From Escherichia coli (GTDB lineage: Bacteria; Pseudomonadota; Gammaproteobacteria; Enterobacterales; Enterobacteriaceae), in assembly GCF_003018255.1 (NCBI RefSeq), contig NZ_CP027440.1: a DNA stretch of 64,000 bases. One strand, written 5' to 3'. The position numbers and the translations under genes are program-made. The notes under the pieces are model-generated. The model was given only the letters and a program-made list of their open reading frames with translations, was not told the origin of the DNA and did no database searches. The first letter of the stretch is position 1. Each line of letters starts with the position of its first letter. Of the stretch, positions 25,456 to 27,017 are shown piece by piece.

Positions 25456-25516
25456 AAACACAGCGGGCAGTGATGCAACTGCCCGTTATCAACACGACTT
25501 ACCAGCGGGGAAAGCG

Positions 25517-25870
25517 ATGATCGTGCAAAAAGAGCTGGTTGCTATTTACGATTATGAGGTCCCTGTACCTGAAGATCCGTTTTCCTTCAGACTTGAGATC
25601 CATAAATGCTCTGAATTATTTACAGGTTCCGTCTATCGACTGGAGCGATTCCGGCTACGTCCAACATTTCATCAACGTGATCGAGAAGATGCTGACCCGC
25701 TAATAAATGATGCGTTGATTTATATAAGAGATGAGTGTATTGATGAGCGGAAATTACGAGGTGAATCACCTGAAACTGTAATAGCAATTTTTAATCGTAA
25801 ACTACAGAATATATTCAACCAACTAATAGAATATTACTTTATTAAAGGGGGAAGCGGTTTTCCCCCTTAG
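25517..25870 (+). CDS. yehK: Small uncharacterised protein
   Basis: 117-aa ORF on the track; true start uncertain (I recall the K-12 product as shorter); stop codon lies inside the hairpin that begins the first zor repeat. Confidence 0.5.
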   Translation: MIVQKELVAIYDYEVPVPEDPFSFRLEIHKCSELFTGSVYRLERFRLRPTFHQRDREDADPLINDALIYIRDECIDERKLRGESPETVIAIFNRKLQNIFNQLIEYYFIKGGSGFPP

Positions 25871-25889
25871 TTGCGTTTCAATTTGCCCA

Positions 25890-25979
25890 TTACTTCAACA
25901 AATCAATCAACCGTAACAGAGCCACTAATAGCTCCAGTACAGCAATGAGCACGGTTAACTTTTGTGTCAGCGTGTCCAT
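25890..25979 (-). CDS. zorO: Type I toxin small hydrophobic peptide, 29 aa (ZorO-like)
   Basis: Minus-strand ATG..TAA encodes MDTLTQKLTVLIAVLELLVALLRLIDLLK; AAGGAG SD 5 nt upstream; long 5' UTR; flanking hairpin terminator; too short for the ORF track. Confidence 0.7.
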   Translation of the reverse strand: MDTLTQKLTVLIAVLELLVALLRLIDLLK

Positions 25980-26217
25980 CCGCTCTCCTTATTAAGGAGC
26001 GCAACACCAGCACCTTACCCTTACACTGCCTGTCGACACTGGTTTACGTTTGTTGAGTCGCCATGTTGCACTCCGGATCAGAGCACTACCTGCGGCACCA
26101 CCCGTCCGGTAGCCAGGACTTGAAATGGGTTCGATCCGGCGCAACTTCCCAACAGTCAGGATTATAAATCTCATTATCTTAATTGCAACACGGTCCAGCG
26201 GTGGTTATAATTCGTTC

Positions 26218-26300
26218 GTTGAGATGCCATGTTGCACTATCAGTAACTTAACATCAAAGTAGTAAATAAAAGAACCTGCCTCACCAGCAGGTTCTTTTAT
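26218..26300 (+). ncRNA. orzO: Divergent antitoxin sRNA (OrzO-like), about 80 nt
   Basis: Consensus-like promoter TTGCAA-17-TATAAT (26183..26211), then a transcript ending at hairpin gaacctgc-ctcaccagc-gcaggttc plus T-run; 5' end gttgagatgccatgttgcact is complementary to the toxin 5' UTR (26053..26073). Confidence 0.6.
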
Positions 26301-26497
26301 TTTCTGCGATCTACTTTCCAGATATTTTTCGCCAATAGCCCACCATAAATATTCACATCCCGGCCAAATAGTACGTTGATTATAAAATCGATGAATTTAT
26401 AAATAAAAATGAGTTATATGATGAATTAATAAAAACAGTAATCATTTTATTAAAGGGGGAAACGGTATTCCCCCTTAGATGCGTTTCAATTTGCCCG

Positions 26498-26587
26498 TTA
26501 CTTCAACAAATCAATCAACCGTAACAGAGCCACTAATAGCTCCAGTACAGCAATGAGCACGGTTAACTTTTGTGTCAGCGTGTCCAT
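26498..26587 (-). CDS. zorP: Type I toxin small hydrophobic peptide, 29 aa, second copy (ZorP-like)
   Basis: Coding sequence identical to copy 1 (same 29-aa peptide), same SD and terminator hairpin. Confidence 0.7.
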   Translation of the reverse strand: MDTLTQKLTVLIAVLELLVALLRLIDLLK

Positions 26588-26825
26588 CCGCTCTCCTTAT
26601 TAAGGAGCGCAACACCAGCACCTTACCCTTACACTGCCTGTCGATACTGGTTTACGTATGTTGGTACGAAACGTTGCTCTCCGGATCAGGGCACCGCCTG
26701 CGGCACCACCCGTCCAGCAGCCAGGACTTAAAATTGGTCCGATCCGGCACAACCTCCCAACGGGCAGGATTATAAATCTCATTCACTGAATTGCAATGGA
26801 GTGTGGATATGGTTATAATTTATTC

Positions 26826-26908
26826 GTTGGTACGAAATGTTGCACAATCAGCAAGTTAGCGTCATTGTAGTAAATAAAAGAACCTGCCTCACCAGCAGGT
26901 TTTTTTAT
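26826..26908 (+). ncRNA. orzP: Divergent antitoxin sRNA, second copy (OrzP-like)
   Basis: Promoter TTGCAA-17-TATAAT (26791..26819); 5' segment gttggtacgaaatgttgcaca is complementary to the copy-2 toxin UTR (26661..26681); same terminator hairpin. Confidence 0.6.
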
Positions 26909-27017
26909 TTACTGTGATCTGCTTTCCAGATATTTTTCGCTCAAACAACTAATGCGGCAAACATTTATTGCGCGTAAAATATCGTTTATTTCATTAATAC
27001 ATTTCAGGGATGAATAT

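Follow-up and report, generated by a model that had tools for sequence, protein, structure and literature searches.

A conserved stem-loop at the 3' edge of the zor-orz module, probably the terminator of the zor toxin gene, meets the end of yehK in Escherichia coli

The hairpin that meets the 3' end of yehK in a 64,000-nt stretch of the E. coli contig NZ_CP027440.1 (hereafter the window) is quite probably a built-in component of the known zor-orz module, namely the stem-loop at the 3' end of the zor toxin mRNA. From its structure and position it is probably the terminator of zor, and we regard the yehK stop codon at its foot as an incidental quirk of the lineage: yehK ends at the hairpin because a minority lineage has lost its normal stop codon. 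The anatomy of the hairpin, its membership of the module, its conservation with covariation and the frequencies of the yehK alleles were established directly by comparing sequences. The feature is an ordinary one in a well-studied system, in which a hairpin behind a small toxin gene comes as no surprise, and its importance is small because the type I pair is already well known. The comparison has a modest value in defining the 3' edge of the zor module, the published conservation surveys having stopped at the stop codon, and in using cross-genus covariation as evidence of selection on the hairpin.

The zor-orz locus and its 3' hairpin

The hairpin lies in a locus already in the literature, the zor-orz type I toxin-antitoxin pair between yehI/yehK and yehL, here present in two tandem copies (Table 1); the position between yehI and yehL was described in PMC2887945. 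In both copies a divergent orz sRNA gene lies upstream of the toxin gene, and a TTGCAA-16-TATAAT promoter is found about 180 nt upstream of each zor ORF, with the hexamers TTGCAA and TATAAT listed for zor promoters in Table 3 of PMC11264685. A 5' UTR of the same length as that of copy 1 is reported in PMC5397157. Both orz genes match the Rfam OrzO-P model well above its gathering score of 60. Relative to ZorO, ZorP carries the substitution T3S and ZorQ A20S (PMC11264685); the two toxin copies in the window both carry T3 and A20 and are thus ZorO, and the encoded protein is identical to ZorO. Zor toxicity and its rescue by Orz have been demonstrated for the O157:H7 genes (PMC3919570). Strain 2017.09.02CC is 100% identical to the window over the 1551 bases compared.

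The 5' end of each Orz is complementary to its own zor 5' UTR (19/21 bases in copy 1 and 17/18 in copy 2), the pairing site lies at position 82-102 of the zor mRNA in both copies, and non-cognate Orz/zor pairs match much worse than cognate ones. The cognate pairing of copy 1 is interrupted (13 matches, 2 mismatches, 6 matches). The pairing region of this yehK-proximal copy, GUUGAGAUGCCAUGUUGCACU, is unlike the O and P types of O157:H7 and resembles that of the single copy of strain AF26; it is possibly the published 'Q' type. The orz genes also give sub-threshold Rfam matches to ohsC (35 bits) and STnc370 (31 bits) at 26218-26303, a hint of a common origin of divergent type I antitoxin sRNAs.

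The locus therefore shares with zorO-orzO/zorP-orzP of O157:H7 (PMC2887945, PMC3919570, PMC5397157, PMC11264685) the yehI-yehL site, the 29-aa toxin, the promoters, the long 5' UTR, the divergent Orz sRNA, the tandem duplication and a hairpin after each copy. It differs from O157:H7 in that both copies encode ZorO, in the Orz pairing region of the yehK-proximal copy, and in that yehK abuts the hairpin, with its stop codon lost and without the 66-nt spacer.

Table 1. Coordinates of the yehK-zor-orz features in the window
Feature	Position	Strand	Basis or remark
Hairpin CGGGCAGTGATGCAACTGCCCG, yehI-yehK spacer	25464-25485	T-run on - only	-13.5 kcal/mol minus, -14.9 kcal/mol plus
yehK, 117-aa stop-loss allele	25517-25870	+	RefSeq WP_000636928.1, 'hypothetical protein', on a genome identical over the region
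yehK codon 107	25835-25837	+	TAC here; TAG stop in sister allele
Tail UUUAAUAAA after hairpin in toxin sense	25836-25844	-	alignment; tail score -3.75
Hairpin, zor copy 1	core 25847-25866; A-T extension 25845-25868		sequence, fold, covariation across genera
TAG ending the extended yehK ORF	25868-25870	+	3' foot of hairpin
zor copy 1 3' UTR, stop codon to hairpin	25869-25889	-	21 nt; alignment, alifold
zor toxin ORF, copy 1	25890-25979	-	29 aa, MDTLTQKLTVLIAVLELLVALLRLIDLLK; sequence and translation
zor copy 1 5' UTR	25980-26153	-	174 nt; transcription start inferred from promoter position
zor copy 1 promoter TTGCAA-16-TATAAT	26161-26188	-	promoter match; -10 box 26161-26166
orz antitoxin sRNA gene, copy 1	26225-26298	+	Rfam RF02083, 90.2 bits
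Hairpin, zor copy 2	26453-26476; core GGGGGAAACGGTATTCCCCC 26455-26474		repeat, fold, pattern count
zor toxin ORF, copy 2	26498-26587	-	29-aa protein identical to copy 1
orz antitoxin sRNA gene, copy 2	26833-26906	+	Rfam RF02083, 88.9 bits

The hairpin core of zor copy 1 reads GGGGGAAGCGGTTTTCCCCC (also given as gggggaagcggttttccccc) and follows the pattern GGGGGAA-N6-TTCCCCC, a G/C-rich stem of 7 bp (five of them G-C) around a 6-nt loop; additional A-T pairs lengthen the stem to 9-10 bp. Folded in 51-nt contexts, either strand of the hairpin gives -14.8 to -16.1 kcal/mol, and the z-scores relative to shuffled sequences are -2.2 to -3.2. The pattern occurs twice in the 64-kb window, at 25847 and 26455, against none expected. 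The first-pass annotation had the yehK TAG contained in the hairpin, which does not hold for the 20-nt string: the TAG begins one base past the core stem, and only its T (25868) falls within the extended stem, so the yehK-frame stop stands at the 3' foot of the hairpin and not inside it. The same annotation had placed the hairpin just 3' of the convergent toxin stop codon, and this is correct, the stop being the complement of 25890-25892, 21 nt away. The reading of it as a terminator-like element following the toxin gene is likewise supported.

The hairpin had further been said to mark the edge of the duplicated unit, and it does. The repeat pairs 25833-26132 with 26441-26740 and 26202-26332 with 26810-26940 are spaced by 608 bp, and we place the left edge of the 608-bp repeat near 25833-25836, only a few bases beyond the foot of the hairpin. 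This edge coincides with that of the module conserved across genera. Cross-genus homology spans the promoter, the 5' UTR, the ORF, the 3' UTR and the hairpin and ends just after CTTTAATAA(A), so the hairpin and its tail form the 3' edge of the zor module as well as the left edge of the tandem unit. In the alignment the tail UUUAAUAAA, the end of both the module and the repeat unit, is nearly invariant across genera. The tandem arrangement is not a clean duplication: the A/T-rich segment of 108 nt (26333-26440) that separates the two zor-orz units is found neither beyond the second unit nor ahead of the first, and O157:H7 has it too.

Distribution and covariation of the hairpin

The hairpin follows both tandem zor copies in the window and every zor copy in the six E. 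coli strains compared. One genome per species was searched with a degenerate pattern of the toxin C-terminus, and Zor homologues turned up in two Escherichia species, E. whittamii (three copies), Superficieibacter electus, Citrobacter sp., Pluralibacter, Leminorella grimontii (two copies) and one MAG. All 12 Zor copies compared outside the window, at 11 loci in other Escherichia species or lineages, the four other genera and the MAG, are followed by the hairpin, with the end of the core stem at a constant +41 to +44 nt past the Zor stop and TTTAATAA next. The neighbours are unrelated from locus to locus and include a tyrosine integrase, a DeoC-family aldolase and a metallo-beta-lactamase-fold protein.

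When 15 of these 3' regions were aligned, none of the nine core pairs was broken in any sequence and the loop varied freely. Three core pairs show compensatory G-C to A-U changes, and the covariation signal vanishes when the 3' partners are slid by one to three columns. These patterns indicate that the hairpin structure is under selection; identity of the module across genera is high and may reflect recent horizontal spread, which weakens the argument from conservation. Because all compensatory changes are of the G-C to A-T kind and wobble pairs show no strand bias (147 against 145 pairs), the structure by itself is strand-symmetric and cannot tell which strand's RNA matters. Wobble pairs were thus uninformative as a means of assigning the strand, and the assignment rests on position and distribution.

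Some further observations concern the wider family, and take in the loci in other genera together with 26 E. coli genomes. The full Zor unit of promoter, UTR, ORF and hairpin occurs outside Escherichia/Shigella in Superficieibacter, Citrobacter, Pluralibacter and Leminorella. One Zor subtype adjoins a phage-type integrase, and its locus also holds a tRNA gene. C4 and isrK RNA matches were obtained at one Zor locus of another genus, and the Rfam OrzO-P model gave no match at its gathering threshold at the Zor loci of other genera. For the island-type zor-like module, a search of phages returned only two tiny unannotated 'phage' records, and a plasmid collection gave about 79% identity in eight E. 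coli records, several of them chromosome-size.

The yehK stop-loss allele and the orz-only sites

The core hairpin corresponds to codons 111-117 of yehK, the last seven sense codons (GGSGFPP), and the reading frame continues through YFIKGGSGFPP up to the in-frame TAG. Elsewhere the gene ends earlier. In its canonical form, as in E. coli B and in O157:H7, it ends in GAA TAA and encodes 105 aa, the former (orz-only) having no hairpin and the latter 66 nt between the stop and the core hairpin. E. whittamii has GAA TAA TAG TTTATTAAA, again with 105 aa, and 12 nt to the core. The S21 type (GAA TAT TAG) and the U1/RIVM type (GAA AAA TAG) both encode 106 aa and lie 9 and 10 nt from the core, respectively. 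In the window the end reads GAA TAT TAC, which gives 117 aa and puts the hairpin inside the ORF. The order of mutations that we infer would lead from an E. whittamii-like double stop, TAA TAG, to TAT TAC, as a result of which 11 more codons are translated, through the hairpin. Codon 107 was tallied in 5426 complete E. coli genomes: 226 of them (about 4%) have TAC and 485 have TAG, and the short yehK-hairpin junction is present in 944. The added residues are the hairpin in translated form; strain ECN24 has a different loop, and its extension reads GGNCIPP. A Pfam scan of the 117-aa YehK matched no family; the RefSeq 'hypothetical protein' is explained as YehK read past its lost stop.

The proposal that the module's junction sits at the very 3' end of a conserved gene is right in one part, since in the form that has no repeat-element insert the module abuts the yehK stop, as at the double stop of E. 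whittamii, and not in the other, the stop at the hairpin coming from stop-codon loss in a minority lineage (226 genomes). Between the yehK stop and the hairpin, many strains have additional sequence, from about 66 to over 300 nt long. Such inserts resemble partial or full ERIC-type repeats, and the 66-nt O157:H7 spacer may be a remnant of one. At the short U1/RIVM junction an insert of this kind seems to have been deleted.

Genomes lacking the module had been suggested as a definition of the empty site. When compared, K-12 and B turned out to have arisen by deletion, with orz and the first stretch of the zor 5' UTR still in place: in E. coli B an intact yehK is joined, about 20 nt past its stop, to the first part of the zor 5' UTR, followed by the zor promoter and an intact orz. 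This orz-only state has already been published, with about 30% of genomes in this state, 27-29 nt of zor UTR retained and the Orz sRNA expressed in orz-only MG1655 (PMC11264685), and sites of the K-12 type are therefore unfit as empty-site controls. In orz-only genomes such as E. coli B yehK is intact and the hairpin absent, so yehK can do without it. E. coli SW07091 carries an IS1 element in place of the yehI 3' end, yehK and all of the zor-orz region, and only about 110 bp upstream of yehL are left.

Transcript ends on the two strands

Tails were scored in the manner of TransTermHP and ranked among the positions of the window. In the zor sense (minus strand) the hairpin has -11.6 kcal/mol and the score of its tail falls in the top 2% of positions; in the yehK sense (plus strand) it has -11.7 kcal/mol and the tail UUAGUUGCG scores -3.43, in the top 4%. 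Either tail has only four U in its first eight bases. A consensus scan with a threshold of five T in eight called a terminator on the plus strand of copy 1 only, and none on the minus strand at either hairpin copy. When either zor mRNA is folded at full length, the hairpin forms as a 3' element of its own. Its position fits a terminator for zor, 21 nt past the stop, and does not fit one for yehK in this strain, where it is coding sequence.

The zor literature consulted (PMC2887945, PMC3919570, PMC5397157, PMC11264685) was found to contain no terminator, 3' UTR description or mapped 3' end. Northern blots of zorO gave transcripts of about 310 and 280 nt (PMC3919570). The transcript predicted for copy 1 would be 316 nt, from 26153 to 25838 in the tail, and 288 nt after the known 28-nt 5' processing; the two bands fit a 3' end at the hairpin, with the caution that this RNA came from a plasmid clone, whose 3' limit bears on the size. 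Terminator stem-loops of type I toxin mRNAs serve as descriptors in T1TAdb (PMC8594479). The zor hairpin is like these terminators in general in being a stable, module-borne stem-loop shortly 3' of a very small toxin ORF, and unlike them in that its U-tract is short and its 3' end is a prediction. We infer termination itself and the position of the 3' end from these features and propose the following course: transcription would start at the zor promoter on the minus strand, cross the 5' UTR, the 29-codon ORF and the 3' UTR, and most likely end in the UUUAAUAAA tail by intrinsic termination, to give an RNA of about 316 nt. The 3' hairpin would also shield this transcript from 3' exonucleases.

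Bidirectional intrinsic terminators between convergent genes are known from full-length RNA profiling of E. coli. The present hairpin resembles them in being symmetric, in standing alone between convergent stops and in having A/T-rich sequence to either side. It differs in that these flanks are not clean A- or U-tracts and one of the two ORFs runs through it. That it is a true bidirectional intrinsic terminator, ending both the yehK and the zor transcripts, is possible but doubtful. The convergent arrangement, the equal energy on the two strands, the high rank of both tails and the call on the plus strand all speak for this reading, as do five of the other loci, where a convergent gene ends 19-42 nt beyond the hairpin. 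However, the hairpin lies within the translated yehK ORF, and the stop of the sister alleles is only 9-10 nt upstream; for terminators a few bp past a gene or late in its coding region, Li et al. 2016 (PMC4824070) found strong repression by ribosomes. That geometry is matched here, with the hairpin in the last eight codons of the stop-loss allele and 9-10 nt past the sister-allele stop, although the published work used the phage terminator tR2 in reporter constructs and yehK is judged by geometry. With ribosomes translating through the hairpin, termination on the yehK strand should be weakened in this strain. The plus tail is also U-poor, and its sequence is dictated by the invariant zor 3' UTR on the other strand, so that its conservation carries no information on yehK and cannot be credited to that gene; moreover, yehK is intact without any hairpin in the orz-only genomes. 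Lying between convergent genes, the zor hairpin may still stop some yehK transcription.

It is unlikely, though the tail gives some grounds for it, that the hairpin acts only as a barrier to 3' exonucleases, with transcription ending further on, for example by Rho or at the hairpin of 25464-25485, and the RNA then being cut back as far as the stem. In favour of this are the weak U-tract and the lack of a scan call on the minus strand; about 360 nt further downstream the yehI-yehK spacer contains a more canonical minus-strand hairpin with a T-run; and an RNA trimmed to the foot of the stem would measure 309 nt, an equal fit to the band of about 310 nt. Yet the near-invariant tail and the sharp edge of homology suggest that the tail is functional, and there is no common downstream element at the internal copy or at the loci of other genera. 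With termination at the zor hairpin as the preferred reading, the hairpin at 25464-25485 could be a back-up stop for zor read-through. The strand that bears its T-run is antisense to yehI and yehK, and the same hairpin is present in E. coli B, which is without zor.

The distance between the yehK stop and the hairpin differs among E. coli lineages, from inside the ORF through 9-10 nt and 66 nt to well over 100 nt (a full repeat element). It is a long shot, in our estimate, that this spacing sets ribosome-coupled read-through from yehK, highest in the stop-loss allele, and that the resulting antisense to the whole zor mRNA adds a translation-dependent control of the toxin on top of Orz. Finally, the idea that the hairpin serves to terminate yehK, or arose by chance as a palindrome where a junction left a scar, in either case unlinked to the toxin, was rejected as very nearly excluded by distribution and covariation: although the hairpin overlaps the 3' end of yehK in the window, it also follows the internal zor copy, where there is no yehK, occurs in genera where the neighbour is another gene and is missing from orz-only genomes that bear yehK, and its stem is maintained by compensatory changes.

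The 21-nt zor 3' UTR contains UUGAAACGCA (25872-25881), which is invariant across genera, and the UTR as a whole is more conserved than a spacer would be. The consensus fold predicts an 8-bp stem around the stop codon (25899-25906 with 25878-25885), in which 5 of 11 sequences replace one U-A pair by C-G. The fold also predicts a pairing between AACGC (25873-25877) and GUGUU (26003-26007), the latter immediately 5' of the RBS-sequestering hairpin; in this model the pairing would close the whole zor ORF into one domain.
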